A stretch of 53,543 nt of DNA. Origin: Hellea sp. (GTDB lineage Bacteria; Pseudomonadota; Alphaproteobacteria; Caulobacterales; Maricaulaceae). Below the pieces are notes generated by a model. The model was not told the DNA's origin. It did no database searches and saw only the letters and a program-made list of their open reading frames with translations. Of the stretch, positions 28,658-45,148 are shown piece after piece (the first letter of the stretch is position 1; each line of letters starts with the position of its first letter). The stretch is taken from contig JABGVR010000180.1 in NCBI GenBank assembly GCA_018645985.1, positions 1 to 53,543 on the forward strand, in the 5' to 3' direction. The translations under genes and the position numbers were made by a program.

Positions 28658-29668
28658 CTATCGACTTCCTCTATTACGTTTTCCGCGTAATCCCTTAGCG
28701 CCCTCTTTAGCTGGGGGGCTTGCGAGAGTTCCTAGTTTCTCAATCACTTGCTCCATCGACGGTCTATTCGATGCAACGTGATTATCTATTGCACTACGCA
28801 TATGCGATATATGTTCAGGTGCGGTACCACAACACCCGCCTATAATTTTAGCACCTGCATTTATTGCTAGACTTGTATATTCTGCCATTAACTCAGGTGT
28901 TCCTGAATAAATAGTTTCTTTTCCTTTAACTACAGGTATTCCACAATTTGCTTTTCCTATAATAGCCGCTTCTAGTATCTCTGATGTCATTTCAAGAATT
29001 GATAATACCATATCGGATGCACCAACCCCACAATTGGCTCCATAAGCGAGGGGCGATATTGTTAAATGGGCTGTAGCTTCATGTATTTTAGAAGGTTTTA
29101 TTCCCATCATTGTGCGTCCAGCTGTATCAAAGCTGGCAGTGAAGACATAGGGAATTCCAACTTTAATAGCCGCTCTCGCAGCTGCTTCTATTTCTTCGAT
29201 AGAGGACATTGTTTCAATCCAAGCCAAGTCTGCACCGCCATCTTTAAGTCCTTGAATTTGTTCTTCAAAATAACCTATGCAATCTTTCATGGTTAAATCA
29301 CCCATGGGCTCAAAAAGCTCACCTGTTGGACCTACTGAACCCCCTACTACTATTTCTCTTTCTGAATTTTCAGCGACCCGTCCTGCAATTTTTGCTCCAG
29401 CTTTATTTATTGCGTAAGTTTCACTTTCAGCATTGTGTAATTTTAATCGAGGTCTGTTCGCTCCAAAAGTATTTGTTAATATTATATCTGAGCCTGCATC
29501 CGCAAAGGACCTGTGCAAGGAAGAAGGTTTTTCTGGGTGCGATACGTTCCATAAGTCAGGTGGAAATCCTGGCTCAAGACCCATTGACATAAAACTTGTT
29601 CCTGTAGCACCGTCAGCTAGTAAAGGAATATTTTTCTTAAGTAGTTTTTCTAGTGAACTACGCATCAC
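28658..29668 (-). CDS. bmt: Stand-alone homocysteine S-methyltransferase domain (Bmt-like)
   Basis: LADGATGT, GSDIILTNTFG, GANCG, IGGCCGT; no pterin or B12 domains. Confidence 0.85.
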   Translation of the reverse strand: MMRSSLEKLLKKNIPLLADGATGTSFMSMGLEPGFPPDLWNVSHPEKPSSLHRSFADAGSDIILTNTFGANRPRLKLHNAESETYAINKAGAKIAGRVAENSEREIVVGGSVGPTGELFEPMGDLTMKDCIGYFEEQIQGLKDGGADLAWIETMSSIEEIEAAARAAIKVGIPYVFTASFDTAGRTMMGIKPSKIHEATAHLTISPLAYGANCGVGASDMVLSILEMTSEILEAAIIGKANCGIPVVKGKETIYSGTPELMAEYTSLAINAGAKIIGGCCGTAPEHISHMRSAIDNHVASNRPSMEQVIEKLGTLASPPAKEGAKGLRGKRNRGSR

Positions 29669-30077
29669 GGTAGCGCGTTATGCGCACACCTACGGCTTCG
29701 GCTTCGGCGAAAGCACTTAACTTAGAAACTGAAACGGTTGCTTGCTCTGCTCGGTCATAAAGCAAACATATTTCTGCGACAGATTCAGCCAATGTTTCAA
29801 CAAGGTCAATATGACCTTTTGATAGTAACTTTTTCACATCTTCAACTATGTAATCATAGCGCAATATGTTCTGAGTCGGGTCAGTAATTGTATTTTCAAG
29901 AAACCCTAGATCAACACTTATATCAAATCTAACAGGCTGCTCAATTCCGCGCTCACTTTCAAAAACACCTATCTGGGCTTGTAGCACAAGGCCTTCAATA
30001 AAAACTTGATCGTTAATAGCACTCTTTGCAGGCTTTAGATTTGTATGACTCGTATTTTCATAGACTTTAAGCATCAA
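29658..30077 (-). CDS. folB: Dihydroneopterin aldolase
   Basis: IGV..SE....Q.V.FD, Y..I, LVETLAE.VA, V.V.K. Confidence 0.85.
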   Translation of the reverse strand: MMLKVYENTSHTNLKPAKSAINDQVFIEGLVLQAQIGVFESERGIEQPVRFDISVDLGFLENTITDPTQNILRYDYIVEDVKKLLSKGHIDLVETLAESVAEICLLYDRAEQATVSVSKLSAFAEAEAVGVRITRYRDA

Positions 30078-30252
30078 AACTTCCTTAAAAACTAAAAATT
30101 TATCTGAGCCTTATTACTGCAATTATCAAGCTTAATTTTAATGAAATAATAAAGAATTATTAGATTTAATATATTAATTTTCAAAAATTTTAATAGTATC
30201 GCTACATAGCAACATATACTTGCCTACCCATATATTATGTTCTAAGTGCAAT

Positions 30253-30409
30253 TTTATTGGTCGCCTTGTGCGTTAATAAGGGAATGGAGTTTAAAGCTTC
30301 AACTGCACCCGCAGCTGTAATTGGTAAGTTTCTCTTACATATGTCACTGATTTTTCGGGAAGACGTAAGAGCAGCATTTGAACCAAAAGTCAGAAGACCT
30401 GCCAATAAA
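30253..30409 (+). promoter_or_regulatory. Cobalamin riboswitch
   Basis: P1 TTTATTGG/CCAATAAA; AAGGGAA, CCCGCAGCTGTAA, GTCACTG, GGGAAG, B12 box AGTCAGAAGACCTGCC; upstream of btuB. Confidence 0.93.
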
Positions 30410-30528
30410 GTCGCCAGCGCACGCGGGCGGGGATGACCGATGTGCATGGAAAAAAGGTAATAATACCTTTCCCAATGACGACACTTTTATATTTAAAATC
30501 GCTATTTTAGCGAAATTGGAGTCGTGTA

Positions 30529-32388
30529 ATGAAAAAATATCTGCTGAGCAGTGCCATGATCTTTTTATCTAGCAATGCATTTGGTCAAAATGGGCAAGAT
30601 TTAAATAAAAATAATGAAGATATAATTGTCTTGGGAACAAGACTAGGAAACATAGATAAAAATAATCTCACCTCACCTGCAATAATTATCACTGAAACCG
30701 AAATAATTAATCGAGGGCAACAGTATGTCTCAGATTTGCTGAGAACTATACCAGGAGTTGCTGTTAACTCCTCAGGACCACAAGGCAGCTTAACGCAAGT
30801 AAGAGTGAGGGGCTCTGAAGCAAACCATGTCTTAGTATTAATTGACGGCGTAGAAATGAATAATCCCACTACAGGCGAATTTGATTTTGCAGGTCTACGC
30901 GCGTCCGATGTCATACGAATAGAAATCTTAAAAGGAGAGCAATCAGCCTTATACGGTTCGGATGCAATAGGAGGTGTTATAAACATAAACACACGAGCAA
31001 ATTCAGTAACCAAAAGTGTTCAGGGCTCTATCAGTGGTGGTAATGAGGAAAGCTATCAAGGTAATCTCAATGCAATAATTCCGGTTGGCTCGGCCTCCTT
31101 ATCATTGAACGGAACAGCATTTAAGTCCCAAGGCTATGATATATCTGGGCTCAACGGCGAAAAAGATGGCTCAAAAGGTAGCAATGTAACCCTCGGTTTA
31201 AATAACGTAAATTTTGCAGGTATATCTTTGAGTGCCAAATTCGGATTTTCTGACATTACAGCTGATATAGACGAAGATACCGATTTCAATGGCCGGCTTG
31301 ATAACACAAATGGAGAAACAAACGTAAAAAGTGATACAGCAAGAATAGATGCTAAATTCGATTTAGCCGGTTTTTCTAATGCAATCACCTCACATATGGT
31401 TGCCACCGACACAAATACTCAAGCAGGGTTCTCAAGTCTTTCAAAAGGTGCAAGGCATGGAATAAACTGGGTTACAAAAAAAGTGATCGGAGGCAATACA
31501 ATATCATTCTTAACTGAAGCCGAGCACGAGTCTTATTCTATCTTACCAAATTTCACAGAAGCTGATGCTGAGCCTGAAATTTGGTCATATGCACTTGCTG
31601 GCGATTACGTTCATTCTTCTGGACCGATGACAATAACAGCTTCTGGCCGTCACGATATAAATGATTTTTTCAAAAATGTTACTACATGGAGGGTAGGAGC
31701 AGGCTATAAACTAGACGAAATAAATGGCAGATTCCGTGCGTCCATAGGTTCTGGTATAAAAAATCCTTCGTTAATCGAACTATTTGGTTTTTATCCAACT
31801 TCTGGTTTTTCTGGAAACGAAGACCTGAAGCCCGAAAACTCATTAGGTTTTAATATAGGCTACGAACATAAAATTGCCAATCTACAACTATCTATTGATT
31901 ATTTCAGATCAGAATTAAAGAATGAAATTTCTACAATATTTGCTCCTGACTTTACTTCCACTGTGATCAATTTAGGCTCTAAAAGCATTCGCCAGGGTAT
32001 TGAATTCGACGCTCAATGGGATATTTCAGAAAAATTAAAAGTTAAATCCTCCGCAACTTTTCAAAAAAGTAAGCAAAATGATTTAGAAGAAATTCGAAGG
32101 CCTAAGTTTACAGCTAGCACATCGATCACATATATACCCAACGATGACATACTAATTTCAACTTCGCTTGATCATAATGGCAGTCAGCTTGATACAGATT
32201 TTTCAACTTTTCAGAATGTAAAGCTTGATGCTTTCACATTAGTTGGAGTTAATGCTTCCTATAGAGTAAACGATAATTTCAAATTTACACTACGAGGTGA
32301 CAATTTACTCAATGAAGATTATCAAGAAGTCGTTGGTTATTTTTCTCAAGGACGAAAATTGTATGCCGGATTTCAAACAAGTTTTTAA
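30529..32388 (+). CDS. btuB: TonB-dependent cobalamin receptor
   Basis: Plug motifs IPGV, RG....H.LVLIDG, IEILKG.QSALYGSDAIGGVINI; C-terminal F; riboswitch upstream. Confidence 0.88.
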   Translation: MKKYLLSSAMIFLSSNAFGQNGQDLNKNNEDIIVLGTRLGNIDKNNLTSPAIIITETEIINRGQQYVSDLLRTIPGVAVNSSGPQGSLTQVRVRGSEANHVLVLIDGVEMNNPTTGEFDFAGLRASDVIRIEILKGEQSALYGSDAIGGVININTRANSVTKSVQGSISGGNEESYQGNLNAIIPVGSASLSLNGTAFKSQGYDISGLNGEKDGSKGSNVTLGLNNVNFAGISLSAKFGFSDITADIDEDTDFNGRLDNTNGETNVKSDTARIDAKFDLAGFSNAITSHMVATDTNTQAGFSSLSKGARHGINWVTKKVIGGNTISFLTEAEHESYSILPNFTEADAEPEIWSYALAGDYVHSSGPMTITASGRHDINDFFKNVTTWRVGAGYKLDEINGRFRASIGSGIKNPSLIELFGFYPTSGFSGNEDLKPENSLGFNIGYEHKIANLQLSIDYFRSELKNEISTIFAPDFTSTVINLGSKSIRQGIEFDAQWDISEKLKVKSSATFQKSKQNDLEEIRRPKFTASTSITYIPNDDILISTSLDHNGSQLDTDFSTFQNVKLDAFTLVGVNASYRVNDNFKFTLRGDNLLNEDYQEVVGYFSQGRKLYAGFQTSF

Positions 32389-32398
32389 TTATTAATAT

Positions 32399-33373
32399 TT
32401 AATTCGGCTTTTCAATACTTGGGTTAATTGGTCTAATGACATTTGGCCCTTGGAATGCATAATATCTGGATACCTCATAGCCTTGCTTCCTAAGCATTTC
32501 TATGAGGCTGTCTTCTCCTAGCAAATGACTAATCCCCACCGCAGCAAAACCCGTTCCGCTACCTTCTATAAAAAATATAAGCTTATCTAACCATTTTTTA
32601 TTTCTTTCCAAAATTAGGCTATTATAAAATTCTGGGGATTTATATTTCATCGTTTCAACTAACTCGCGAGATAAATAATCCGTTCTTCCTAAAGCCCACG
32701 ACTTGGCGATACTATTAAGATCATCACCAAGACTATTAAAGCCCTCAAGGCTTTCAGTAAGTATTGAAATTTGGGTAGAATGAGAGAGATTAACTGAGGC
32801 AAGAATTTGCTCCTCGACAGTTTCTAAATATATAATATTTTTTTTATCTCTCATAGCTCGTGACTTTAAGGCCTCATCAGCAGAGAGTTCTGATGATAAG
32901 TCGGCACTTTTAGCCGCTGCCATAGTAATGAATTCACTAGCAAACCACGGCTTAAAACTATCCAATGCAGCAATACTCAAATTACCATTGTGTGCAACCG
33001 CCTCTAATAATTTTAACTGATAATTATCAAGCCCATCAGACAGCCTGAGTCCATCCTGCCGCATACCAAGGCTCGTTGCTAAAATATTTGCTGCAACCTT
33101 CTCATCTGTTGCGGAATTAACTTCAAAAAATATAGTACCTGAGGATGAAAAAGCTTTTTTCATATCATTTTTTTGCCAATTCAGGTCAGGCGGTAAAAGG
33201 TGAACAGTGCCGTATAAGTAAAGCACCGTATCGCTGTCCTTAAGGACCCAGATAGCCGGACCATCATTGCGATCGCGAGCAAGCTCAACTTGCGAATTAA
33301 TATCGGAGGAAATTGTTGAACTGTCACAGCTAATGAGCCAAACAGTAAACATTATGATAATAAATCGAAACAT
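32399..33373 (-). CDS. TraB/GumN family lipoprotein
   Basis: PAIW, YLYGTVH, LET..EQ, RN..W, AVG..HL. Confidence 0.9.
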   Translation of the reverse strand: MFRFIIIMFTVWLISCDSSTISSDINSQVELARDRNDGPAIWVLKDSDTVLYLYGTVHLLPPDLNWQKNDMKKAFSSSGTIFFEVNSATDEKVAANILATSLGMRQDGLRLSDGLDNYQLKLLEAVAHNGNLSIAALDSFKPWFASEFITMAAAKSADLSSELSADEALKSRAMRDKKNIIYLETVEEQILASVNLSHSTQISILTESLEGFNSLGDDLNSIAKSWALGRTDYLSRELVETMKYKSPEFYNSLILERNKKWLDKLIFFIEGSGTGFAAVGISHLLGEDSLIEMLRKQGYEVSRYYAFQGPNVIRPINPSIEKPN

Positions 33374-33427
33374 ATTTTATTATTGAACTCACCTATAAAT
33401 ATATTCAATAGTTCTTTTTATGAATAC

Positions 33428-35410
33428 TTATTGGATGTTTTTGGTGTCTAATTCAGGAATGTACTCATAAAATTCAGATCCTGCTAATTCCGAGAGATTG
33501 CACCAACTTGAGGTAGCAAAAAAAACTCTACCCCTTAAGACTTCAGCACTGCGAATTCCATTGGCGCAAGGGTTGCCAAAACCATTACTTGTTAGAACAC
33601 GAGGTGGACCATACCCCTCAAAAACTACAAGATCACCACCTGGAATAAAATCTTTACCATTTCCATTCTTCTCCATTTGTTTTCTCATATGCCTATGTAG
33701 CACATGTGTTAGGCTATTATTCTTCTTATTTTCCCAACCAATAATTGGTATAGAAAGTCCTGGAATTATTAATAGTCTATTTGCATTTGCTTTTTCGAGT
33801 AAATCATGAGTCCCTGAAAATGCATCAAAGAAACCCCAAAATAAACTTCCATTATGATTTAGTGATGTCCACGAGTAAATATTTCCTGGATTACCCATGC
33901 CAGCATCGCCAAATAAAGGAATCTGCTTAAGGTTATTTGGTACGCTTCCCCATTGCCCGTCATCATTAACAACATTGAAATTTTCATATCCATATAGTAA
34001 TTCCGGGTCTTTAGCTCCTTTACTAATCTGATCCAGGTCAGTTAGTTTCATCCTAAAAATGGAGCTAGCCCTCCATTGGTTGATTGTGAATACTTCATGC
34101 TTTTTATTTGTAGATGTCAGTTTTTTAAAAAGCTTTTTATCTGCTTTTTTAAAATGTTCATATCCTGAAGCAGTCCCTTGATGGTAGGTTCCAAAATAAA
34201 TGTACCCATTAAAAATATTAGTTGTGCCCCACTTTGAACCCCAGCGACCCCTAGTATCTGGATCATACTGTTCCATTCCAAAAATAACTTTAAATTTCAT
34301 ATGATTGTTTTTTGTCCACCCCCCCAGAGGTAAGGGATCTGATAAGAGCATTTTAGATTCCTCACGAGTAGGGTCAAGATCACTTGTATCGTTATTATAT
34401 AATAGAGGGTGTGCCGCTGATGACATTATAAGTCTTTGACTGCCATCATAATGCTTGAACTGTTTTAAATCACCGATCATTCCGTGCCGGCCATCAAGCT
34501 TTTCAGAAGAAACTATATCCCAACCTGCCCCGGTTCCATCTTCAGTCTGTAGGTAGTTACCACCTTTAAAGGGGTTATCTTGACTTCCAATCCAGCGCAG
34601 CATCACGGTAGGGCCTTGACCGTTTTGCAGCATGCCTGTTTCAGCTCCAACTATAGTATAAAATCCAATTTGACCCGCTGCATCTTTAATGGCTACAAAG
34701 CGGCGGATTGTGTCGCCTTTAATATCTCGGTAACCCAAAAAGGACCTTTTCTTAGCATTAAAAGCAAATATTCTGAGCCACCCTTCTGATTTAGCATGTT
34801 TATGATGCCCTACAAAAAATACAATATCGCCAATTGTTCCTGCAGCCCTTAGTCCCATTACTGAACGGCGCGACATTTCTTTATGACGTTTCATTGCAAG
34901 GTGAAATCTTTCTCCTCCATCTAGTAACCAATCTTTATTGACTAACTCTTGTTGGCCTGTCTCAAAATTATAAACAATAATTTGGGAAAGACTTGAAAGT
35001 GTATCTTGAATTGAACACCCGGTATATTGGCTTTGATAAGTGCTCAAAGAAAGAGGCCATTTAAGATTTACGGATGGCCAGACACACCACCCTTGAGAAA
35101 TTGTACCCATCCATAATTCATTACCATGGATCGTTGTTGACCATGGATAAGATGCGCCCCTCTTCGCTTGGTGACCATTGAGGATGCGGTTGTCCCATTT
35201 TCTAGAGTTGTTATTTAAATTCTTACTACTAGTTACAGATTTAAACGAACCATCAATACTGCTGGTGGCAACTAACTTAAAAGGTCCATCAACTGCTTTT
35301 CGAACAACCGGCTTAAATTTAAGGTTGCCAATAAATAAATTCGAAAAGGCAACAAAAAGCAGACCAAAGAGTAAAGAAATCAGAACAAATACTCTTCGCC
35401 TTTTAATCAT
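33428..35410 (-). CDS. Hypothetical membrane-anchored protein, probably beta-propeller
   Basis: 660-aa ORF, N-terminal basic plus TM segment, repeated W/R-x5-G-x-phi-phi-phi-GT motifs. Confidence 0.7.
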   Translation of the reverse strand: MIKRRRVFVLISLLFGLLFVAFSNLFIGNLKFKPVVRKAVDGPFKLVATSSIDGSFKSVTSSKNLNNNSRKWDNRILNGHQAKRGASYPWSTTIHGNELWMGTISQGWCVWPSVNLKWPLSLSTYQSQYTGCSIQDTLSSLSQIIVYNFETGQQELVNKDWLLDGGERFHLAMKRHKEMSRRSVMGLRAAGTIGDIVFFVGHHKHAKSEGWLRIFAFNAKKRSFLGYRDIKGDTIRRFVAIKDAAGQIGFYTIVGAETGMLQNGQGPTVMLRWIGSQDNPFKGGNYLQTEDGTGAGWDIVSSEKLDGRHGMIGDLKQFKHYDGSQRLIMSSAAHPLLYNNDTSDLDPTREESKMLLSDPLPLGGWTKNNHMKFKVIFGMEQYDPDTRGRWGSKWGTTNIFNGYIYFGTYHQGTASGYEHFKKADKKLFKKLTSTNKKHEVFTINQWRASSIFRMKLTDLDQISKGAKDPELLYGYENFNVVNDDGQWGSVPNNLKQIPLFGDAGMGNPGNIYSWTSLNHNGSLFWGFFDAFSGTHDLLEKANANRLLIIPGLSIPIIGWENKKNNSLTHVLHRHMRKQMEKNGNGKDFIPGGDLVVFEGYGPPRVLTSNGFGNPCANGIRSAEVLRGRVFFATSSWCNLSELAGSEFYEYIPELDTKNIQ

Positions 35411-35500
35411 TGTGAATTCCTGTTTTGCTATTAATATTAAAATATATCACTTTGAATAGAAGCGCTATGAATAATAACTATTAAAGATGAGGAGTCTAAT

Positions 35501-35884
35501 GTGAAGATAATGAAAATTTATTTCATCATAATGGTAGCTGTTTGGTTACCATGGGGAATACAATGCATTTTTAATATATCAAATATAACTGAAATTATTG
35601 GGGTTAGTGCACTAAACCCCAACGGGGCAACTGATATTCGAGTAATGTACGGGGGCGTTCAAACAGGTTTAGGTTTGATGGCACTTATTGCTTTCTTTAA
35701 ACCATCTCTAGGCAAATACACACTTTTCTCTCTAGCAATGCTTGGCTCATGCATGGCCCTTACAAGAAGTTATGGAGTTGTAGTAGACGGTAGTACATCA
35801 TTATTTAATCTAAGTGTTTTAGCCTTTGAGAGCTTTACTGGAATTTCTTCAGGTTTTTTACTAACGAGAGATAAGCTGAAATAA
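35501..35884 (+). CDS. DUF4345-like membrane protein; likely start 35510
   Basis: DIRVMYGG...GLG, R.YG...DG; four TMs. Confidence 0.7.
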   Translation: MKIMKIYFIIMVAVWLPWGIQCIFNISNITEIIGVSALNPNGATDIRVMYGGVQTGLGLMALIAFFKPSLGKYTLFSLAMLGSCMALTRSYGVVVDGSTSLFNLSVLAFESFTGISSGFLLTRDKLK

Positions 35885-35916
35885 TATTATAAAAATAAAC
35901 CTAGATTTATAAAAAA

Positions 35917-36243
35917 ATGATGATAAGTAGCTTTATGTTTAGAACGAAGTTTCATAAGATTTTGGTTAGCTTATTAGCTGTCCTTTTTCTATGCCTCCAG
36001 ACGACTAGCGTTGTACATAGCGCCGAATTAGAAGGTGATACAGACCATATAGAATGTTCTGTATGTCATTTGGTGTCTGAAAAATCTGACTCTAAAATAA
36101 CTCAATCATACTTTAATGATGGTTTTGATAACTCTATTGAACTTAAAAAGGATACTTTTGCATCCATCTCTGACACTTGGATAATTAAAGAAACAGAAGT
36201 TCGAGGCCCACCTCCAAGAGCGCCGCCGACTACTCTCATATAA
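35917..36243 (+). CDS. Exported leader protein with CxxC and C-terminal RGPPPRAPP (CruR/CutF, DUF2946-like putative arrest peptide); start may be 35935
   Basis: Signal peptide, HIECSVCH, RGPPPRAPP at 36202-36228, directly upstream of a TonB-dependent receptor. Confidence 0.8.
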   Translation: MMISSFMFRTKFHKILVSLLAVLFLCLQTTSVVHSAELEGDTDHIECSVCHLVSEKSDSKITQSYFNDGFDNSIELKKDTFASISDTWIIKETEVRGPPPRAPPTTLI

Positions 36244-36289
36244 ATTAAAACAACTTTCCGCTGCTTTTGCAGTAATTTATTATATGAGA
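36234..36289 (+). promoter_or_regulatory. RBS-sequestering mRNA hairpin between leader ORF and receptor
   Basis: TCTCATATAA (36234-36243) is the exact reverse complement of TTATATGAGA (36280-36289); inner CTGC-tttt-GCAG hairpin. Confidence 0.7.
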
Positions 36290-38431
36290 ACAACTATGTC
36301 TTTTTCAAACTCTACATCAAAGATAGCATTAGCTACTCTTTTATTATCCTTGCCTTTTTCGGCACAATCTCAAACTACTGATAATAACGATGAAATCGTT
36401 ATTACAAGCGCACGTATTCTGGGCGGTTCGCCTGATGATGCAATAACAGGTATCACTATTTTAACAGGTGATACACTGGATAACCGCTTAGCTTCAACCA
36501 TTGGTGAGACACTAAAATATGAACCCGGTGTTTCCTCTTCTTTCTTTGGTGCGGGTGCATCACGCCCAATCATAAGGGGCCAAAGCGGTAACCGCGTACG
36601 TGTTCTAGTCAATGGCATTGGTACAATTGACGCTGCTGCAGCCTCACCAGATCATGCCGACGCAGTACAACCAGCACAAGCTGAAATAATTGAAGTCCTA
36701 AAAGGCCCAGCTATGCTGCGGTTTGGCTCATCTGGGTCAGGAGGTGTTATAAATGTTATTGATGGTCGTATTCCAAGTGAAATTCCTGAAAGCACTGAAG
36801 CATCAGCGCGAGTTGGGTTTAGTTCAGTTGATTCAGGTAAAGAGGCCGCAGCATCTATTAAACAGAATCTTGGCAATAACTTAGTGTTACATTTAGATGG
36901 CACATGGAAAGAGAGTAAAGATTATAGAATTCCAGGTTTCGCTGAAAGTGAGATTTTCCATGAAAGTGAAGAAGATCATGACGAAGATCATGATGAGGAT
37001 CATGACGAAGATCATGATGAAGATCATGACGAAGATCATGGTGAAGAACGCGAAGGAGAAATGAGAGACCGACTTGAAAACTCATTTACAAAAACTGCTT
37101 CTTTAACAGGGGGTTTATCTTACATATCCGATAAAGGCTTTATAGGCATATCAGTTCACCAACTTGATAGTGAATATGGTATACCAGGTGGCCATGAACA
37201 TGGTCATCATGAAGATGACGATGAAGATCATGATGAAGATCACGATGAAGATCATGATGAAGAGGAAGAACTAGTTTCTATTGACCTTAAGCAAACACGC
37301 ATTGATCTAAATGCAGTAAGGGAGCTTGGTGGATACTTCGAGAGGGTGCAATTGTTTGCAGGATATGCAGATTATGAACACACGGAGCTTGAAGGTGATG
37401 AGGTTGGTACCGTTTTTGCTAATGAGGGACTGGAAGCACGTCTTGAGTTAGTTCAAACAGAAGAAAATGGTCGTAAAGGCGCAACTGGAGTCCATATTCG
37501 AAAAAGCGATTTCAGCGCAATAGGAGCAGAAGCATTCGTACCTCAAACTGATACACGTGAAATTGCTATCTACACATTCCAAGAGCAATCCTATGATAAT
37601 TTACATATCAGAGGCGCTATGCGTTATGAAAATAATCGAATTGTGTCAGAAGCATTAAACCAGAAAAAATCTTATGGCTTATTTAGTGTTTCCGCAGGCA
37701 GTGATTATCATTTTAACAGCCAAAATAGATTAGGGTTAACTGCCTTTAGAACAGAAAGGTCACCTACAAGTGAAGAATTATATTCCAACGGTCCTCATTT
37801 AGCTACTGATACTTATGATGTTGGCAATGCCAATTTAGACAAAGAAACAGCACTGGGTGTTGAATTAGCATACCGTTTTAAGTCTGATAATTACTTCTTA
37901 ACTGCAAATGCATTCATCACAGATTATCAGGATTATATCTACAAGGAAATGATTACTGATCAGATGATCGATGGTCTTGATGTATATAACATGTTAAGCT
38001 CCGATGCAGTTTTCAAAGGCGGAGAGATACAGGGTGCATATACATTTGAGGACATTAACAATGTTTCCATATCAATTGATGGGCTCCTTGAATATGTACG
38101 CGCTAAAACAACAGCTGGAAACCTGCCGCGAATAGCTCCACTATCAGTCCTAGTCGGAGCAGATGCTGAATGGAAGAATATACAATTCCGTACCGAATTA
38201 GATTATTCAGCTAAACAAAATGAATTATCTTCTTATGAGCTACCGACAGAGAGCTTTGCTCAAGTAAATGCATTTTTAACTTGGACCCCTGAAGTTAATC
38301 AAAATATTAAATTTAAGCTTTCAGCTCTAAATTTATTTGATGAAGAGGCCAGACAGCATTCATCCTATCTCAAAGATGTAGTGCCGTTACCGGGAAGAAA
38401 TTTCCGCTTCTCCATTAAAGCGGCATTTTAA
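36284..38431 (+). CDS. ZnuD-like TonB-dependent metal receptor with His/Asp-rich loops; likely start 36296
   Basis: TIGETL...PGV, FGAGASRPIIRG, SPDHA, YGIPG.H, LYSNGPHLAT, PLPGRNF, C-terminal F. Confidence 0.88.
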   Translation: MRTTMSFSNSTSKIALATLLLSLPFSAQSQTTDNNDEIVITSARILGGSPDDAITGITILTGDTLDNRLASTIGETLKYEPGVSSSFFGAGASRPIIRGQSGNRVRVLVNGIGTIDAAAASPDHADAVQPAQAEIIEVLKGPAMLRFGSSGSGGVINVIDGRIPSEIPESTEASARVGFSSVDSGKEAAASIKQNLGNNLVLHLDGTWKESKDYRIPGFAESEIFHESEEDHDEDHDEDHDEDHDEDHDEDHGEEREGEMRDRLENSFTKTASLTGGLSYISDKGFIGISVHQLDSEYGIPGGHEHGHHEDDDEDHDEDHDEDHDEEEELVSIDLKQTRIDLNAVRELGGYFERVQLFAGYADYEHTELEGDEVGTVFANEGLEARLELVQTEENGRKGATGVHIRKSDFSAIGAEAFVPQTDTREIAIYTFQEQSYDNLHIRGAMRYENNRIVSEALNQKKSYGLFSVSAGSDYHFNSQNRLGLTAFRTERSPTSEELYSNGPHLATDTYDVGNANLDKETALGVELAYRFKSDNYFLTANAFITDYQDYIYKEMITDQMIDGLDVYNMLSSDAVFKGGEIQGAYTFEDINNVSISIDGLLEYVRAKTTAGNLPRIAPLSVLVGADAEWKNIQFRTELDYSAKQNELSSYELPTESFAQVNAFLTWTPEVNQNIKFKLSALNLFDEEARQHSSYLKDVVPLPGRNFRFSIKAAF
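36971..37042 (+). repeat. 12-bp coding tandem repeat x6 (EDHD)
   Basis: GA(A/G)GATCATGA(C/T) x5 plus GAAGATCATGGT. Confidence 0.95.
37193..37270 (+). repeat. Second His/Asp/Glu low-complexity tract with three EDHD units
   Basis: Encodes HEHGHHEDDDEDHDEDHDEDHDEEEE. Confidence 0.9.
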
Positions 38432-38439
38432 GAAAATAA

Positions 38440-38480
38440 TTTTATCCCCGTGTAAAATGGATATTTGCACGGGGATAAAA
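38440..38480. repeat. 17-bp intergenic inverted repeat (stem-loop)
   Basis: TTTTATCCCCGTGTAAA / TTTGCACGGGGATAAAA; no U-tract directly after the GC core. Confidence 0.8.
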
Positions 38481-38504
38481 AAATAGTAGGCTATAGAGGC
38501 TATC

Positions 38505-38906
38505 ATGATAAAGACACAATTAACATCCGACAAAGTAGCCATTAGTCTATCATTGGTTTGCGTGCTGCACTGCTTTTTTGTACCTTCTTTTATTATTTTA
38601 ACTCCAAGTTTTATGTCTTTTTCATTAGGGAACGAGTTCATACACAAACTGATCGTTATAGTTGCAGTTCCTGTAAGTTCGTATGCTTTAGTATTGGGGT
38701 ATAAAAACCACAAGACAGCTTCATATCTTCCCGCTGGTATTTTGGGGTTATTGGCAATTATTTTTGCTGTAGTCTTAGGGGAAGAAATTTTAGGTGAGAC
38801 TATAGAGAAAGGCTTAACTTTAACGGGGTCAATATTAATAGCTTTGGCCCACTATAAAAATTATCAGATTTGTAAGCAATTAAATTGCTCATGTCACGAG
38901 GACTAA
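38505..38906 (+). CDS. MerC-domain membrane protein
   Basis: DK.AI.LS..CVLHC...P, E..H, GY..H, AH..N, C-terminal CSCHED. Confidence 0.85.
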   Translation: MIKTQLTSDKVAISLSLVCVLHCFFVPSFIILTPSFMSFSLGNEFIHKLIVIVAVPVSSYALVLGYKNHKTASYLPAGILGLLAIIFAVVLGEEILGETIEKGLTLTGSILIALAHYKNYQICKQLNCSCHED

Positions 38907-38930
38907 AAAACTATCCTCCGAGTGATTAAT

Positions 38931-39971
38931 CTACCACTCACGTATTATCTTTTGTACAAATTTTCCAGAAGAAGTTAAATCTTGTGGTCTCCATGGTCCA
39001 CTAGAGTCAGCTCCTTTTGTCAAGATAGAGGCTGCCTCATTTTTATCGCTTACTGCCCAGTTTAAATGAGTTAGATTATTTTTCCTAATAAAGCGTAACC
39101 ACTCAAGCGTTGACTCCTCATCCATAAAACCATCTCCATCAGAAGATACTGTACCCCACTCTGATATAATAAGAGGTAGTCCTTTACTTATCGCGTATTC
39201 TGCTTTTTCGCGAAGTTCGTTTTTATGGGAGGCTGCATAAAAGTGCAAAGCGTATAGTAAATTATGCTGGTCAAGTATGGGGTTGTCAGCAGCAAGATCA
39301 ACATCTTGGCTCCAACTTGGAGTCCCGACAATTATCAAATTATTAGGGTCTATTTTGCGGATGGCATTAATAATAGTCTCAGAGTAGGGCTTAACTATTA
39401 ATTCCCATGAAATATCATTCAAAGGCTCATTATAAATCTCATATATGAGATTGGGTGTGTTCCCATACCTTTCTGCTATGAAAGTAAAAAACTCTATAGC
39501 TGCGTCTAAATTTTGTTCTGCTTGGTGCGAATGCCAATCGACTATGACATAAATTTCATTAGCTATTGCCGCATCGATTACGCTAGTTACTCGGTCAAGA
39601 TTAGCTTTTCTTTTCTCTAAATAGCTACCAGTGCCCTGCGCCCCCATTGCAATACGAATTATGCCCGCCTTCCAATCTTTTGCAAACGAAGCAATAGCTT
39701 CTGAATTATAAAATCGTTCTTGCCCCCACCCCGTGTTAGACCAAAATAAACTTACTCCTGCCAAAGATATGACTTCTTTTTTAACATCACGAATAAATGT
39801 ACCATCAACGGATAGCTGTCCATGGTGGGCAACTGGAGAAGTTTTTTGGGATTTAAAAGATGCTTTTAAGTGATGTGAATTAATGTCTTTAGCATAAGAA
39901 AAGCTGGCAGATGCAGCTATCATAATTACATATATTATAAAAAGCTGCATTCGCATTTTAAGCTCTGACAT
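38931..39971 (-). CDS. Secreted glycoside hydrolase family 5 endoglucanase (no CBM)
   Basis: HGQLSV.G, SLFWSN.GW, IVDWH, YEIYNEP, LHFYA, ISEWG, NWAVSDK. Confidence 0.93.
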   Translation of the reverse strand: MSELKMRMQLFIIYVIMIAASASFSYAKDINSHHLKASFKSQKTSPVAHHGQLSVDGTFIRDVKKEVISLAGVSLFWSNTGWGQERFYNSEAIASFAKDWKAGIIRIAMGAQGTGSYLEKRKANLDRVTSVIDAAIANEIYVIVDWHSHQAEQNLDAAIEFFTFIAERYGNTPNLIYEIYNEPLNDISWELIVKPYSETIINAIRKIDPNNLIIVGTPSWSQDVDLAADNPILDQHNLLYALHFYAASHKNELREKAEYAISKGLPLIISEWGTVSSDGDGFMDEESTLEWLRFIRKNNLTHLNWAVSDKNEAASILTKGADSSGPWRPQDLTSSGKFVQKIIREW

Positions 39972-40010
39972 ATATATTTATACGGCCTATATTCTAAGCT
40001 TAGGTGAAGA

Positions 40011-40517
40011 TTATTCTGTAGAAACTTTTTTTGCACTTTTCATCATGAAATGTGTATCATCAAAAACCTGAAACTTTATATACTTACCATTTTCAATAAC
40101 TGCCACATGCAGAGAATCGCTTACTTCACCGCCTGTTGTCATTTTAGTTCTTATAAAGACGGTATTACCAGAAGCATGATAAGAAATAGGCTCAACCTTA
40201 AAATCTGGCCAATATTCCGCTATTGGTGCAAATACATTTTTTATAACATCTTCTGGGCCTATATATGTGCCGCCATAAGGGAAGCCTTTAGGCATAGTCC
40301 ATACTGCATCATCAGCTTGTGTGAGCGCCCACGCCTCCATATCATTTACTTTAAAAGCATCATACCCTAACTTTGCGAAAGCAATTAAATTTTCACTACT
40401 TACCACATCAGGTGTACTCACTGAATCTTGTGCTGTCTGGTTAGAATTAACGGAACACCCCATAAGAACCATTCCCGCAAATGTTAAAGCAGTAAACTTA
40501 ACTATACTATTAATCAT
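40011..40517 (-). CDS. NTF2/SnoaL-like lipoprotein
   Basis: Lipobox LMGC; YDAF...D, D.VW, GFPYGGTY.G, F...DT; GGAGG upstream of ATG 40517. Confidence 0.8.
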   Translation of the reverse strand: MINSIVKFTALTFAGMVLMGCSVNSNQTAQDSVSTPDVVSSENLIAFAKLGYDAFKVNDMEAWALTQADDAVWTMPKGFPYGGTYIGPEDVIKNVFAPIAEYWPDFKVEPISYHASGNTVFIRTKMTTGGEVSDSLHVAVIENGKYIKFQVFDDTHFMMKSAKKVSTE

Positions 40518-40684
40518 AATTTCCTCCAAAAATTAAACTAGCCCTTACCTCAATACATTAAAAGAACTCTTATTGCAAAGCATTAAATGAGAACCATTCG
40601 CAAAGTAATTGACAATTTATCTTAACTATACTTAAATATGGTATGAGAATTTACTCATTATATTCTTAAGTTTAGGAGAAAATT

Positions 40685-41098
40685 ATGGAAAATTTATTAG
40701 AATATCAAACATTAAGTATGTTTGGTACATACAGTATAGCTTTTGCGCTCAGGGCAATAGGAAGCGTATTGGCGATCTGGCTTGCACTTCGTGTGGCAAA
40801 CAATATTCGTATGTCAAATGATAGTAATGTAATCAGCAAACTATTAGGTTCTGCTTTTGGCATCTTAGTGATGTATGGAGCATTATATTGGCAAATGGCT
40901 TATATAACAATTCGGGCTAATACAGCTAACGGCCTGAAAGCTATGAGTGAAGGCGGAATGCAGCTAACTCCTGGTAGCGAACAATTTTTAGCTAATTTTG
41001 CAACAGATGCAGTATCACTTCCAATACCAGTAGCTGTTTTTGATTTAGTTATTATAGCAATGATCTTACTACAAATTTGGATGCCTAAAAAAGCATAA
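40685..41098 (+). CDS. Hypothetical membrane protein
   Basis: AGGAG RBS, three hydrophobic segments, own terminator. Confidence 0.8.
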   Translation: MENLLEYQTLSMFGTYSIAFALRAIGSVLAIWLALRVANNIRMSNDSNVISKLLGSAFGILVMYGALYWQMAYITIRANTANGLKAMSEGGMQLTPGSEQFLANFATDAVSLPIPVAVFDLVIIAMILLQIWMPKKA

Positions 41099-41109
41099 AT
41101 AACACCCCT

Positions 41110-41136
41110 AAAACGCCGTATAATACGGCGTTTTTT
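41110..41136 (+). terminator. Rho-independent terminator
   Basis: AAAACGCCGTA-taa-TACGGCGTTTTTT. Confidence 0.85.
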
Positions 41137-41170
41137 ATTTAAAGTTAATTTCTATTTATACTTTGTATAA

Positions 41171-42067
41171 ATGAATTTAAATGCATCAAGTATCTCGTTG
41201 CACCTTTGCGATTTAAACCATAGAATCAAGGTTATGGTCTTTCACATTATAAACATAACCAAGACTTTCTATTCTATCTTTTTTATCTATCTTACAATTA
41301 TGCTTTCTCTAGCCATCGAGACAAAAGCGATGGAAATTAAGTCAATAGCGAGTACATCGCTTTGTGGTGATACATTTATTCTCGAACTTGCACCTAAGCA
41401 TATCAGTCACCTTTCATGGCAATCTAGAAGCCCTTTATCTACTGCTAATGAAAAACAAAAAAAGCTTCCGCAAGTATGGAATGATACTGAAACTCTCATA
41501 AATTCGGGTGCTTCTCATATTTTATTTGGCCCCGGCGAAACTAATAATAATGTTCTACCTACTGTCCAAAAAATAGAATTAAAATGGGGCGAAGGTTTTG
41601 AGACCATAAGGTCTAATGCTGAACTTATAATTAAATCCTTAGAGTTAGAGGGTGATATATTAGATAATTGGGAGGAACGAATAAATAGCCTTCAAAGAAA
41701 AGTAGAAACCCGTGAAATTAAACCAAAGGTTTTATATTTATCTCGTTCAGGTAGCTCTGCTGGTTCAAATACCTTTGTAGATGAAGCTATAAAGTCAGCA
41801 GGTGGAATGAATGTTGTCAAGCAAACTGGTTGGTACAAACCAGATGCTGAACAGCTGATAAAATATACGCCCGACCTTATCATAACAAGCTATTTCGGTA
41901 ATGGTTATGAATCGGTTGAGGCAGTTGCAATTAGAAATAAAGTTATAAAACGTTTTATTTATTCCCACCCTGTTGTAGAAATAGAGGGTGGATTATGGCC
42001 CTGCGCTGGACCTGGCCTTATTAAGGCTGCTGAGAAAATATCGATAGCGTTGGATAGTCTACCATGA
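41171..42067 (+). CDS. ABC substrate-binding protein, BtuF-like (true start probably downstream)
   Basis: I.S.SLC.D..L.LA, G..TF.D..I..AG..N, E.L....PD, W.C.GP. Confidence 0.8.
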   Translation: MNLNASSISLHLCDLNHRIKVMVFHIINITKTFYSIFFIYLTIMLSLAIETKAMEIKSIASTSLCGDTFILELAPKHISHLSWQSRSPLSTANEKQKKLPQVWNDTETLINSGASHILFGPGETNNNVLPTVQKIELKWGEGFETIRSNAELIIKSLELEGDILDNWEERINSLQRKVETREIKPKVLYLSRSGSSAGSNTFVDEAIKSAGGMNVVKQTGWYKPDAEQLIKYTPDLIITSYFGNGYESVEAVAIRNKVIKRFIYSHPVVEIEGGLWPCAGPGLIKAAEKISIALDSLP

Positions 42068-43026
42068 AGTTTACTATCTTAATCATATGCACACTTAGCT
42101 GTGTTATTTTTTCATTATTCATAGGCACAGTAGACTTATCTTTTATAGATGTGTTAAAAGCACTTCTTGGGCGTGGCACTGACACTAATAATATTATAAT
42201 AAGAGAGTTAAGGCTCCCGAGATCACTTACTGGAGCAGTTATTGGAGCTGGCCTTGGTGCCTCGGGGGCAGCCTTACAAGGTTATACCCGTAATCCATTA
42301 GCTGCTCCAGGAATTCTTGGGTTTACAGCCTGCGCTGCTCTTGGGGCAGTTATAGCATTATATTTTGGCTTTTATAAGTGGATTCCATTAGCTGCCTTAT
42401 CAGGGACAGCGATAGGTGCATTTCTAATTTTAAAAATTTCAGGTAATCGCAAAAGTGCCTCAACTCTTATTTTAGCTGGAGTGGGTGTAAGTGCCTTAGC
42501 TACAGCACTCACTGGGCTTACCATGAATTTCTCTCCAAACCCATGGGCTCTATCAGAAATGGTTTATTGGCTAATGGGTTCCCTCAGTGACTCTCAATTT
42601 GTAGACTTATTAATATGTGCCCCGCTTACAATTATCGGTATAATAATGCTAACTCTAATCGGTCCTGATTTAAAAACTTTAAGTCTCGGTGAAGAAACTG
42701 CTGTTTCGTTAGGTGTTTCGCTTGGCAGGTTACGCGCCATACTCATTATTGGAACAGCTCTATGTGTTGGAAGTGGCGTAGCAATAGCAGGAGCAATCGG
42801 CTTCATAGGTCTTTTCATTCCTCATATTATTAGGCTTATATTTGGTTCAGATCCTATTAAACTAATTCCATTATCTGCAATTTCTGGGGCTGGGTTTTTA
42901 GTTTTTGCTGATATAATTTCTCGTTATCTTACAGGCCCGGGTACTCAACTATATCTCGGTATACTAACCTCACTTATCGGGGTTCCCTTTTTCTTATATC
43001 TAGCGATTAAAGAGACCAAAGTATGA
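42064..43026 (+). CDS. FecCD/BtuC family ABC permease
   Basis: LRLPR, RNPLA.PG, LGEE.A.SLG, IGFIGL..PH, G.PFF. Confidence 0.92.
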   Translation: MKFTILIICTLSCVIFSLFIGTVDLSFIDVLKALLGRGTDTNNIIIRELRLPRSLTGAVIGAGLGASGAALQGYTRNPLAAPGILGFTACAALGAVIALYFGFYKWIPLAALSGTAIGAFLILKISGNRKSASTLILAGVGVSALATALTGLTMNFSPNPWALSEMVYWLMGSLSDSQFVDLLICAPLTIIGIIMLTLIGPDLKTLSLGEETAVSLGVSLGRLRAILIIGTALCVGSGVAIAGAIGFIGLFIPHIIRLIFGSDPIKLIPLSAISGAGFLVFADIISRYLTGPGTQLYLGILTSLIGVPFFLYLAIKETKV

Positions 43027-43775
43027 TACATATTAACAACCTGCTATCCGGCTATGGTCCCTGCGATGTAATTCAAAATATTTCAGCAGAAGGGAAACAA
43101 GGAGAATTAATTGCTCTTGTAGGGGCAAATGGATCAGGTAAATCAACATTACTAAAAACCTTAGCTGGCATTATAACACCCACTTCAGGAACAATTAACT
43201 ATTTAGGAAAAGAACTTGCAGGGTTTTCATCGCGAAAACGAGCCAAAATAATTTCTTATCTAGCACAAAATCGTGAGGCATATCCCAGCATGCCTGTTTA
43301 TGAAATTGTTGAACTTGGTCGCGCCCCCTACAGGGGATCTCTAGGGCAAATAAGTTCAACGGGTAAAGATATTATTGAGAGTTCGATGGTGCACACAAAA
43401 ACTCAAGCACTTAAGGACAGAAAATTCAATAACCTATCGGGAGGGGAGCAAGCTAGAGTTCTCCTTGCAAGAGCGCTAGCAGTAGACGCGCCAATTATTT
43501 TAGCTGATGAACCAATATCTGCGTTAGACCCTGCATTCCAAATTTCCATGATGCAAGCCCTCCAAAGAGAAGCTAAAAAAGGAAAAATTGTAATAACTGC
43601 ACTTCATGACTTATCTCTTGCATCTCAATTTTCTAGTAAAATTTGGATGCTAAAAAATGGAAAAATTGTCGCTAAAGGTGTCCCTAAAAAAGTCTTAAAC
43701 GCTGAAAATTTAAAAAATACTTTCCAAGTAAAACTTCCGAAGGGAGGCTTTAAAGCTCTTCAATTAGCTAATTAA
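43023..43775 (+). CDS. ABC ATP-binding protein, BtuD/FepC-like
   Basis: GANGSGKST, LSGGE, ILADEP, LHDL. Confidence 0.92.
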   Translation: MIHINNLLSGYGPCDVIQNISAEGKQGELIALVGANGSGKSTLLKTLAGIITPTSGTINYLGKELAGFSSRKRAKIISYLAQNREAYPSMPVYEIVELGRAPYRGSLGQISSTGKDIIESSMVHTKTQALKDRKFNNLSGGEQARVLLARALAVDAPIILADEPISALDPAFQISMMQALQREAKKGKIVITALHDLSLASQFSSKIWMLKNGKIVAKGVPKKVLNAENLKNTFQVKLPKGGFKALQLAN

Positions 43776-45148
43776 CATTCCACTACATTTACAGCCAATC
43801 CACCTTGGCTTGTTTCTTTATACTTAGTTGACATATCCAAACCCGTTTGACGCATCGTTTCTATAACTTGGTCTAACGAAACTTTCATTTTGCCCTCTGA
43901 ATGCAAGGAGAGTCTTGCCGCATTCACTGCCTTTACAGCTCCAATTGCATTTCTTTCTATACAAGGTATCTGCACAAGGCCTCCAACTGGGTCACAAGTT
44001 AAGCCAAGGTTGTGCTCCATACCAATTTCAGCAGCCTGTGCAATCTGTAATGAACTGCCGCCCCATATTGCCGCTAATCCTGCAGCAGCCATGGAACATG
44101 CGACGCCGACTTCACCCTGACACCCCATCTCTGCCCCTGAGATGGATGCTCTTTGCTTGTAAAGCAATCCGATGCCACCGGCTGTTAATAAAAACTTTCG
44201 AATATTCTTTACTGAATTAGAATCATCGTAACAATAATGCCTAATTATGGCAGGAATAATTCCAGCTGCACCATTTGTAGGTGCAGTTACAACCTGTCCG
44301 CCTGCAGCATTTTCTTCATTAACTGCCAAAGCATAAACATTAAGCCAATCAAATAATTGTTCTCGCTCATTAGACATTTCCGTTTGTGTTAATTTTTTCC
44401 ACAAATCTGGGCTGCGGCGGCGCACCTCAAGGCCTCCAGGTAAAACGCCCTCGCAATTAAGACCTCGGTCAATACAATCAAACATTACTGCACCAACTTT
44501 ATCTAAAGCCGCGTTTGTCTTTGATCGTTTCCTGATTGCATCTTCATTAGTAATGATAATTTCATCTATAGACATTTTATGATCAGCACATAAACGCAAT
44601 AAATCCTCTGCGGAACCAAAATCATGCGGCACTCTAAAACCATTGGAAATAATATCACCCTTAAGCGGAGAGGATAACTGATCATAAGAGGCTATGAATC
44701 CGCCTCCAGTCGAATAGTATATGCGCTCTAGAAGTATATTGCCCTCAAAGTCAAAAGCAGTCATTTGCATTTCGTTGGGGTGTAACTTTGTCGGCGTCTC
44801 ATAATCAAATAGTAAATCTAAAACTGGGTTAAAGTTTATGCTTTTACTTCCATTTAATATAATCTGGTTTTTACTATAAATTTCCGACAGGTTTTTAGAT
44901 GCTAGTTCAGGGTCAAATGCTTCGGGGCTATAGCCCAACAGACCATAAATAGTTGCCTTAGGTGTTGCGTGGCCCTCTCCAGTAAAAGCCAAAGAGCCCC
45001 TGAGTATAACTTCAACCCGCGTAGTGCTTTCTAGTACGCCTTGCTTGGATAGTCTCTTTACGAAACGCTTTCCGATGCGCATTGGACCGACAGTATGACT
45101 GGATGAGGGCCCTATACCTATTCGAAATATATCTAATACTGATAACAT
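43772..45148 (-). CDS. sdaA: L-serine ammonia-lyase
   Basis: [42 protein letters not shown]. Confidence 0.97.

Follow-up and report, generated by a model that had tools for sequence, protein, structure and literature searches.

Bacterial zinc uptake is taught as a matter of Zur-controlled transcription. Metal-sensing arrest leaders are already a known kind of regulator, represented by CruR and CutF, and the only tested ones found respond to copper. This work concerns a leader of about 100 amino acids (aa) encoded ahead of a ZnuD-like TonB-dependent receptor and a MerC-domain protein in a DNA stretch of 53,543 nucleotides (nt) from Hellea sp. (contig JABGVR010000180.1), called the window throughout. 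Comparison of its sequence with those of its relatives makes it very probable that the leader is part of an arrest-gated switch. What is new here is the in-place deletion of zur in this lineage together with loss of the Zur box, with the leader as the only control detected.

The RAPP motif has been shown to arrest ribosomes in seven of seven C-terminal cases from Streptomyces, and arrest was also demonstrated for CruR (PMC12992588). In CruR, the leader of an importer, metal relieves the stall (PMC9426467). The signal peptide is needed by CutF (PMC9973294) and is dispensable for CruR (PMC9426467). A spacing of 45 residues is estimated to put the Cys at the periplasmic mouth of SecY (PMC9973294). 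The same study describes His-only clusters that may sense nickel or cobalt, and the word zinc is absent from its main text. In an engineered construct, a SecM stall is released when a His2Cys2 domain folds with zinc, which takes place within the tunnel, at 24-26 residues (PMC4571824). ZrgD, a DUF2607 protein described as of unknown function, is the product of the gene that opens the Zur-repressed zrg zinc-uptake operon (PMC9817125, PMC9820375). An earlier note, made from the window sequence, regarded the use of such leaders before zinc-type uptake genes as possibly new; it is already on record, as the supplement of PMC12992588 lists DUF2607 and RAPP leaders before zinc genes. The main text of that paper does not contain the word zinc, its available portion holds no analysis of Zur, helix or metal specificity for these leaders, and no Hellea or Litorimonas row is among the catalogue matches listed. 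Searches of the open literature showed no paper testing a zinc-responsive arrest leader.

The leader and its family

A total of 190 receptor loci were examined. Of these, 80 came from a database search with the receptor and 110 from the window's family, in which 139 relatives had a match and a subset was used. Usable upstream DNA was lacking for ten loci, leaving 180. A leader, meaning an open reading frame (ORF) with a hydrophobic start and an RxPP-like end, precedes a ZnuD-type receptor in 105 of the 180; this count takes in the window, two duplicates, and three leaders that are longer and differ in type. Two REPP variants and one truncated copy came in addition from a profile search, and the leader profile finds 2640 representatives (50% clustering, E<=0.001). 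All of 103 leaders share the final Cys, the final Arg and the final Pro, and the first and second His are kept in 94% and 78%. The distance from the Cys to the first RxPP Arg is 43-46 residues in 83 of 103 leaders, and the His-to-Cys distance is 15 residues in 63 of 88. The conserved set in the alignments is therefore read as His, His and one Cys, not CxxC. The earlier note had made conservation of both CxxC and RAPP in homologues a condition of its proposal. The RAPP half of this stood, as its Arg and Pro are invariant; the CxxC half did not, with CxxC in only 40 of 103 leaders and its first Cys usually replaced by Gly. Most family leaders carry one Cys and 3-4 His. At the window's own site, conservation is 94% for H34, 78% for H44, 34% for C47 (Gly in 49%) and 100% for C50, and H51 lies outside the columns conserved in at least 35% of the family. 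The tandem RGPP and RAPP motif, once proposed as a possible novelty of this locus, occurs in 57 of 103 leaders and 108 of 150 best representatives, with about three changes on the tree. Only its second motif is invariant, and that is the one placed to open the helix described below.

At the window locus, the leader of about 100 aa with its signal peptide, H-x9-H-x2-CxxC-H segment and RGPPPRAPP ending four codons before the stop was re-derived, and the coordinates given earlier for leader, motifs, receptor and MerC-domain gene all hold. The true start is likely the ATG at 35935, giving 102 aa, because this is the sole Met common to the orthologues in G105 and G142 (G000 is the window's genome; G105, G142 and G081 are small-genome relatives of Hellea type). 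The signal peptide was judged from hydrophobicity and the -3/-1 pattern, not by SignalP. The first His is preceded by a small residue at -1 in 72 and at -3 in 73 of 88 homologues, and the pattern suggests that it is likely the first residue after signal cleavage, i.e., the mature N-terminus; the window leader has an atypical Val at -1. In the AlphaFold model (pTM 0.34), a helix over residues 2-32 is the sole structural element; there is no folded sensor domain, and the model is uninformative for the metal site.

The leader ORF is under protein-level selection that is concentrated on the metal and arrest segments. Compared with G105, pN is 0.10 and pS is 0.31, these two segments have zero amino-acid changes, and the linker is near neutral with its length kept. 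One R[AG]PP near the end of a small ORF is within chance for this genome (1 seen and 0.41 expected among 1455 ORFs of 70-150 aa). The tandem form is beyond chance (0 in 200 shuffles), and of the genome's 5266 six-frame ORFs a single one contains RGPP. By analogy with CruR, ApdA and ApdP, we infer arrest at RAPP, and the CruR toeprint predicts a stall with 36223-36225 in the P site.

The leader passes broad CutF-like filters, namely a length below 150 aa, a signal peptide, PP in the last 15 aa and a same-strand neighbour. The proposed search against the DUF2946 family (PF11162) gave no match for the window leader at E<=0.1 or 0.5, and none in the G000 genome; 33 of 92 leader homologues matched weakly at E<=0.5 (best E 2.9e-7), and the profile match spans only a 14-column tail of a 5-sequence DUF2946 alignment. 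PF10795 (DUF2607) did not match the window leader and is absent among the matches listed (best 25 of 30 families) for the 92 homologues. The ESM Atlas returned mostly unnamed clusters, with one DUF2946 cluster (54% of members) at rank 10. An Rfam scan of 29000-45000 found nothing over the leader. The leader was not found in G081, where the receptor is cut by the contig end, or in G016, a genome without the receptor.

Several loci depart from the common form. REPP tails occur in two leaders (L192:825-1130, L195:772-1143), a third leader is truncated before the motif (L029:2681-2923, oriented), and the ORF upstream of the L062 receptor is a very His-rich leader with a tail near RPPR. L176, L182 and L190 carry longer (115-130 aa), Zur-box-preceded RAPP leaders of another layout before the same receptor family, which suggests independent recruitment. 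At L243 and L245-L248, DUF2946-like ORFs with an HHAHxCGSCH segment and a YRPPR tail lie ahead of outer-membrane efflux genes.

A predicted helix over the receptor start site

The receptor has two candidate ATGs, 40 and 52 nt 3' of the leader stop, in agreement with the earlier placement of the leader 40-52 nt upstream of a ZnuD-like receptor. The segment 36234-36243 is perfectly complementary to 36280-36289, which holds the receptor start signal, and the window helix has a z of -3.7 and, in a comparison with shuffled arms, a p of 0.005. Taken over 103 loci, pairing between the 18 nt that follow the motif and the 20 nt upstream of the same locus's receptor has an energy of -9.08 kcal/mol. With partners swapped among loci, the value is -4.48 kcal/mol, and the best of 10,000 permutations reaches -5.37; with arms shuffled within each locus, it is -4.27 kcal/mol, and 64 of 100 loci are at p<0.05. 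Pairing played no part in picking the receptor starts, which relied on signal-peptide geometry and purine words and are probably wrong at some loci.

Partners that pair with the ribosome-binding site (RBS) fall +6 to +20 nt from the predicted P-site codon in 84% of cases, and in this model they are within reach of a stalled ribosome. At the window, the computed cost of opening the RBS is 8.1 kcal/mol when the mRNA is free; a ribosome stalled on RGPP changes it to 9.0, and one stalled on RAPP to 3.4. Because the stall lowers the cost only at the second motif, the stall is read as the on state and the second motif as the working one. A stall at the last RAPP is thus predicted to switch receptor translation on.

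It is highly improbable that the output is instead transcription termination, by Rho as in CruR or at the inner hairpin, with the RBS helix secondary. C exceeds G over about 36154-36390 (0.29 vs 0.13 at 36206), and the inner hairpin scores weakly terminator-like. However, the spacer is 40-52 nt vs 162 nt in CruR, terminator-like sites number 3 vs 2.3 in shuffles, and the covarying arms point to control of initiation. Termination could act downstream, via polarity on untranslated mRNA.

RNA contigs of runs X3 and X5 span the leader-receptor junction, with the upstream gene at a depth of 0-2; these data are contigs only, showing neither level nor a single transcript, and run X8 covers everything like DNA. 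The upstream gene, a DUF4345 membrane gene at 35501-35884 (+), ends 32 nt 5' of the leader's first ATG on the same strand. It is barely covered in X3 and uncovered in X5, and it may be a separate transcription unit. Scans of the window locus for sigma-70 promoters and terminators stayed at shuffle level.

Table 1. Features of the leader-receptor-merC locus, in window coordinates
Feature	Position	Strand	Basis or remark
Leader ORF	35917-36243	+	108 aa from first ATG
Signal-peptide-like hydrophobic helix	35935-36015	+	-3/-1 pattern in homologues, AlphaFold helix
Putative metal site	36016-36069	+	H34-x9-H44-x2-C47-x2-C50-H51; conservation across family
First arrest motif (candidate), RGPP	36202-36213	+	45 residues after C50; its Arg 60% conserved
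Second arrest motif (candidate), RAPP	36217-36228	+	50 residues after C50; Arg and last Pro invariant
Predicted masking helix, 5' arm	36234-36249	+	Last codons, stop and 4 more pairs
Inner GC hairpin in helix loop	36260-36273	+	Weak terminator-like score; similar hairpins in many relatives
Predicted masking helix, 3' arm	36276-36289	+	Covers ATG 36284 and GAGA 6 nt before ATG 36296
ZnuD-type TonB-dependent receptor	36284-38431	+	NCBIfam, PDB, ligand alignment
17-bp hairpin between receptor and merC	38440-38480		Unique in genome, no U tract
MerC-domain membrane protein	38505-38906	+	PF03203 over cut-off, CxxHC motif

Zinc context and the loss of zur

Among 23 NCBIfam families, the best match of the receptor is ZnuD (NF038289) at 390 bits with a cut-off of 950; the protein is ZnuD-like by sequence and not a strict member of that family. 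At E<=1e-20, neisserial ZnuD (4RDR) is the one PDB entry that it matches. The zinc site of that protein is composed of four residues, with which D123, H124, E368 and H505 of the window receptor line up at a constant offset of 14. The ligands are given as D90/H100/E340/H499 (PMC4557270), and D90 is read here as D99 because of the constant offset. Among 172 receptors, the three zinc-ligand motifs are retained by 150, 172 and 146. The window receptor has His/Asp tracts at 36968-37048 and 37187-37270 and a mature chain without Cys, and its closest matches are Hellea sp. proteins of 84-97% identity.

A Zur-box matrix was trained on 38 sites from leader-less loci only, and its consensus resembles published Caulobacter Zur sites (PMC4176598). 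A box lies just before 76 of 104 leaders and before all four DUF2607 genes; 11 DUF2946 leaders had none (score <=2.4). The zur gene adjoins the receptor in 39 leader-less loci and in no leader locus within the DNA fetched. Absence of the box tracks absence of zur, with 83 of 95 loci concordant, and in independent pairs the box is lost with zur absence 6.4 vs 0.0 times (median p 0.03). Because box absence follows zur absence, the box is taken to be Zur's own. Both zur and the box are present at 63 of 95 leader loci, and in most relatives the sequences place the leader as a second layer under Zur. In the Zur-positive Hellea-type loci L092-L094, L108, L109, L126 and L127, the box is about 8 nt before a TTGAC hexamer, which in turn is about 35 nt before a GTG. 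This layout possibly reflects a leaderless transcript with Zur upstream of the -35 element, the position at which Caulobacter Zur activates (PMC4176598).

The third gene is a MerC-domain gene, as the earlier note had it (PF03203 over cut-off). Seventeen merC homologues were fetched besides the window's, 3 were not re-found and 14 were scored; a Zur box precedes 11 of the 14, and 2 of the other 3 follow a zur-like gene. Because its homologues are linked to Zur boxes, the MerC-domain protein is likely an inner-membrane zinc carrier and not the product of a mercury gene. No mer genes were among the genes scanned on both sides of the window merC, and no genome search for merA or merR was made. In three relatives (L222, L228, L253), merC-domain genes lie directly behind a zur-like gene. 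The proposed znuD-merC synteny was rejected as a conserved unit, as only 7 of the 180 locus rows, counting the window and one duplicate, have merC 3' of the receptor, and G081 has no PF03203 match. G105 has two receptor-merC copies (contigs C60 and C69), 86% and 99% identical to the window receptor, which perhaps reflect mixed strains in the bin. Between receptor and merC, one RNA contig of run X3 ends at 38438, and the hairpin that follows is likely an mRNA end or stabiliser.

Taken from sequence, the operon is very likely a zinc-uptake operon. The context of the leader makes periplasmic metal sensing plausible; should it sense metal, that same context makes zinc the likely ligand. The arrest-helix switch could also be one that answers to copper or another metal (Ni, Co, Cd) while Zur handles zinc, with the leader shutting a promiscuous receptor when toxic metal reaches the periplasm. 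This reading is unlikely. Both tested relatives sense copper, and the weak DUF2946 matches of 33 of 92 leader homologues point the same way. The His at +1 after cleavage recalls copper-binding N-termini, a His at the mature N-terminus being linked with copper binding. Two layers also fit two inputs best, and 63 of 95 leader loci have zur and its box. However, no copper gene was seen at the window locus, the DUF2946 leaders are without Zur boxes and have a different N-terminal layout, and the family mostly has one Cys and 3-4 His. Moreover, zur-less genomes would be left with a receptor without any zinc control.

Such genomes occur in the window's own lineage. The window's genome is 1.98 Mb with 38% GC and is 88% complete, and seawater runs contain its DNA. 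Of 151 family genomes, 136 yielded a Zur-like gene. None was found in the four genomes of 1.8-2.0 Mb, G000, G081, G105 and G142; a single Fur-family gene is present in each of these, and the one in G000 scores as Fur. In relatives, zur is immediately flanked by the same two genes in 9 of 10 cases, with one additional gene in between in the tenth. In G000, these flanking genes follow one another on contig C34 with about 170 bp separating them, and G081, G105 and G142 have a colinear junction. Because the flanking genes adjoin on one contig and are colinear in the other genomes, sequence comparison reads the absence of zur as an in-place deletion, not an assembly gap. The Zur box is gone from the leader promoter in the three scorable genomes (5.9, 4.8 and 2.8), and at the window promoter the score of 5.9 (p 0.16) is no box. 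A remnant box there was considered and dropped. Zur-like sites scoring >=14 in G000 number 21 vs 42-50 in shuffles. ZnuA (PF01297) and ZIP (PF02535) were not found in G000, at 88% completeness, and PF02492 gave one weak partial match. merC lies behind the receptor in G000, G105 and G142, and because G000 shows no ZnuA or ZIP, it is left as the candidate inner-membrane step.

In this lineage, the leader is the only control on the receptor that could be found. A leader accompanies 25 of 28 receptors in genomes without detected zur vs 74 of 124 in genomes with zur, counts in which kin are not independent and many assemblies are incomplete; of the three zur-less exceptions, two do have a leader-like ORF, its tail being altered. 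The idea that CxxC is an adaptation to zur loss was rejected, as its raw excess (19 of 25 zur-less vs 18 of 71) vanished in independent pairs. The earlier note mentions neither the RBS-masking helix nor the Zur boxes of relatives nor the missing zur gene of this lineage. Its central proposal of a CruR/CutF-like arrest leader gating a zinc-type receptor is supported, at the level of sequence, by conservation, Cys-RxPP spacing, the RBS helix and Zur-regulon membership.

Other genes of the window surround this operon. A cobalamin riboswitch (RF00174, 103 bits) at 30241-30420 (+) lies ahead of a second TonB-dependent receptor, probably BtuB-like, at 30529-32388 (+). A B12/iron-chelate-class ABC importer, composed of a periplasmic binding protein, a FecCD permease and an ATPase, is encoded at 41171-43775 (+). 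The 660-aa protein at 33428-35410 (-) has a hydrophobic stretch in its N-terminal part and matches no Pfam family at E<=0.1, and a GH5 cellulase-family gene at 38931-39971 (-) is convergent with merC.

The proposed switch and its relatives

At low zinc, the ribosome would pause on RAPP and keep the helix open, and the receptor would be made. At 45 residues from the motif, the Cys would be placed where SecY opens to the periplasm. Once the emerging peptide had bound zinc, the pause would end and the helix would close over the receptor start. The chances that this full model of a zinc-sensing arrest switch, released by zinc, is correct are about even. Its polarity follows from function: the stall is the on state and an importer is needed at low zinc, so zinc should release the stall. 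On this context, release by metal is clearly more probable than prolongation. A further reading, in which the switch suffices alone, is tentative. In it, streamlined marine bacteria could delete Zur and its regulon, the switch is kept on one detectable zinc-uptake operon (receptor and MerC-domain carrier), and Vibrio ZrgD would be the same device.

Several points weigh against the full model. Copper is the metal sensed by the closest relatives that have been tested, and a site of His and Cys is not specific for zinc. Where Zur senses zinc, another sensor for it would seem superfluous, and a Vibrio zrgD knockout is described as having no growth defect under zinc chelation (via PMC9820375). CxxC does not track zur loss (1.6 vs 1.0 pairs, p 1), and zur absence beyond the four Hellea-type genomes rests on incomplete assemblies. 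For the helix, the ribosome footprint lowers the opening cost by <2 kcal/mol in 31 of 103 loci, and RNAalifold on a MAFFT alignment of 45 loci gave 0 consensus pairs, probably due to poorly alignable spacers. Opening of the helix is also predicted for a ribosome at termination (2.7 kcal/mol); therefore, plain translational coupling could explain the arrangement. Finally, the short spacer and RBS helix resemble those of CutF, whose polarity is the opposite, with metal prolonging the stall.

The last two points each lead to a different reading. If the leader sensed no metal, it could serve as a Sec export monitor, as SecM does, or as constitutive coupling that meters receptor synthesis. The first RAPP leaders to be discovered preceded sec genes, helix opening is predicted for every ribosome that completes the ORF, and AlphaFold shows no folded sensor domain. 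However, if no ligand is bound, it is hard to account for an invariant Cys and a 94% conserved His at fixed distances in proteins whose mean identity is about 21%, and this reading is very unlikely. It is very unlikely, too, that zinc prolongs the stall with CutF polarity, so that the receptor is on only when Zur is off and zinc is outside. The short spacer, RBS-masking stem, conserved signal peptide and 45-residue spacing do match CutF. However, polarity follows function in the two tested leaders, with the importer off and the detoxifier on in the presence of metal, and in zur-less lineages such a switch would be positive feedback on an importer without a brake.

If true, the zinc-released switch would add a translational layer to zinc homeostasis. 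It would also hint at how abundant small-genome marine bacteria manage zinc without Zur, and suggest functions for DUF2607/ZrgD and for non-mercury MerC-domain proteins. The zur deletion is a natural experiment, and the geometry of the switch is specific.

The described systems resemble the leader in different ways. CruR (Bp2923, DUF2946/PF11162) of Bordetella pertussis is also the product of the first gene of a TonB-receptor import operon, with an export signal, a Cys motif 45 residues before RAPP and a stall that keeps the importer on (PMC9426467). CruR differs in sensing copper, in its length of about 145 aa, its 162-nt spacer, its use of Rho and its dispensable signal peptide; the leader is about 102 aa, has conserved His and usually one Cys, and is followed by an RBS helix and a Zur-regulon receptor. 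CutF of Rhodobacter capsulatus likewise has a Sec signal, a metal motif 45 residues before a Pro-rich tail and a stem-loop that hides the Shine-Dalgarno site of the next gene, the leader's own stem being predicted by computation (PMC9973294). Unlike the leader, CutF has CxxxC, senses copper and controls a detoxifying oxidase, and metal prolongs its stall. By analogy, the leader would be like CutF in layout and like CruR in logic.

Neisserial ZnuD (PDB 4RDR; PMC4557270) shares its family, His/Asp tracts and four aligned zinc ligands with the window receptor, and Caulobacter ZnuK/L/M (PMC4176598) share the Zur-type box with window relatives. Unlike the window operon, ZnuD and ZnuK/L/M are described as under Zur control at the promoter, and these accounts, in their available text, describe no leader. 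The catalogue of Fujiwara et al. 2025 (PMC12992588) lists 5450 RAPP upstream ORFs before TonB receptors and 137 before DUF2796/ZrgA, and its supplement has at least 9 rows before "zinc-regulated" receptors. ZrgD (DUF2607/PF10795) of the Vibrionaceae is about 100 aa, with an upstream Zur box, a hydrophobic N-terminus and a His...His..His-x-Cys segment that is followed by 44 residues and then R[AS]PP. The leader profile aligns with DUF2607 over 79 columns at 90.8% probability, from only 4 DUF2607 sequences; these four genes have a ZrgA-type gene next, and one was checked against Pfam. RBS pairing is clear in only 2 of the 4 loci. ZrgD differs from the leader in preceding the binding protein ZrgA, in another His/Cys register and in its single motif.

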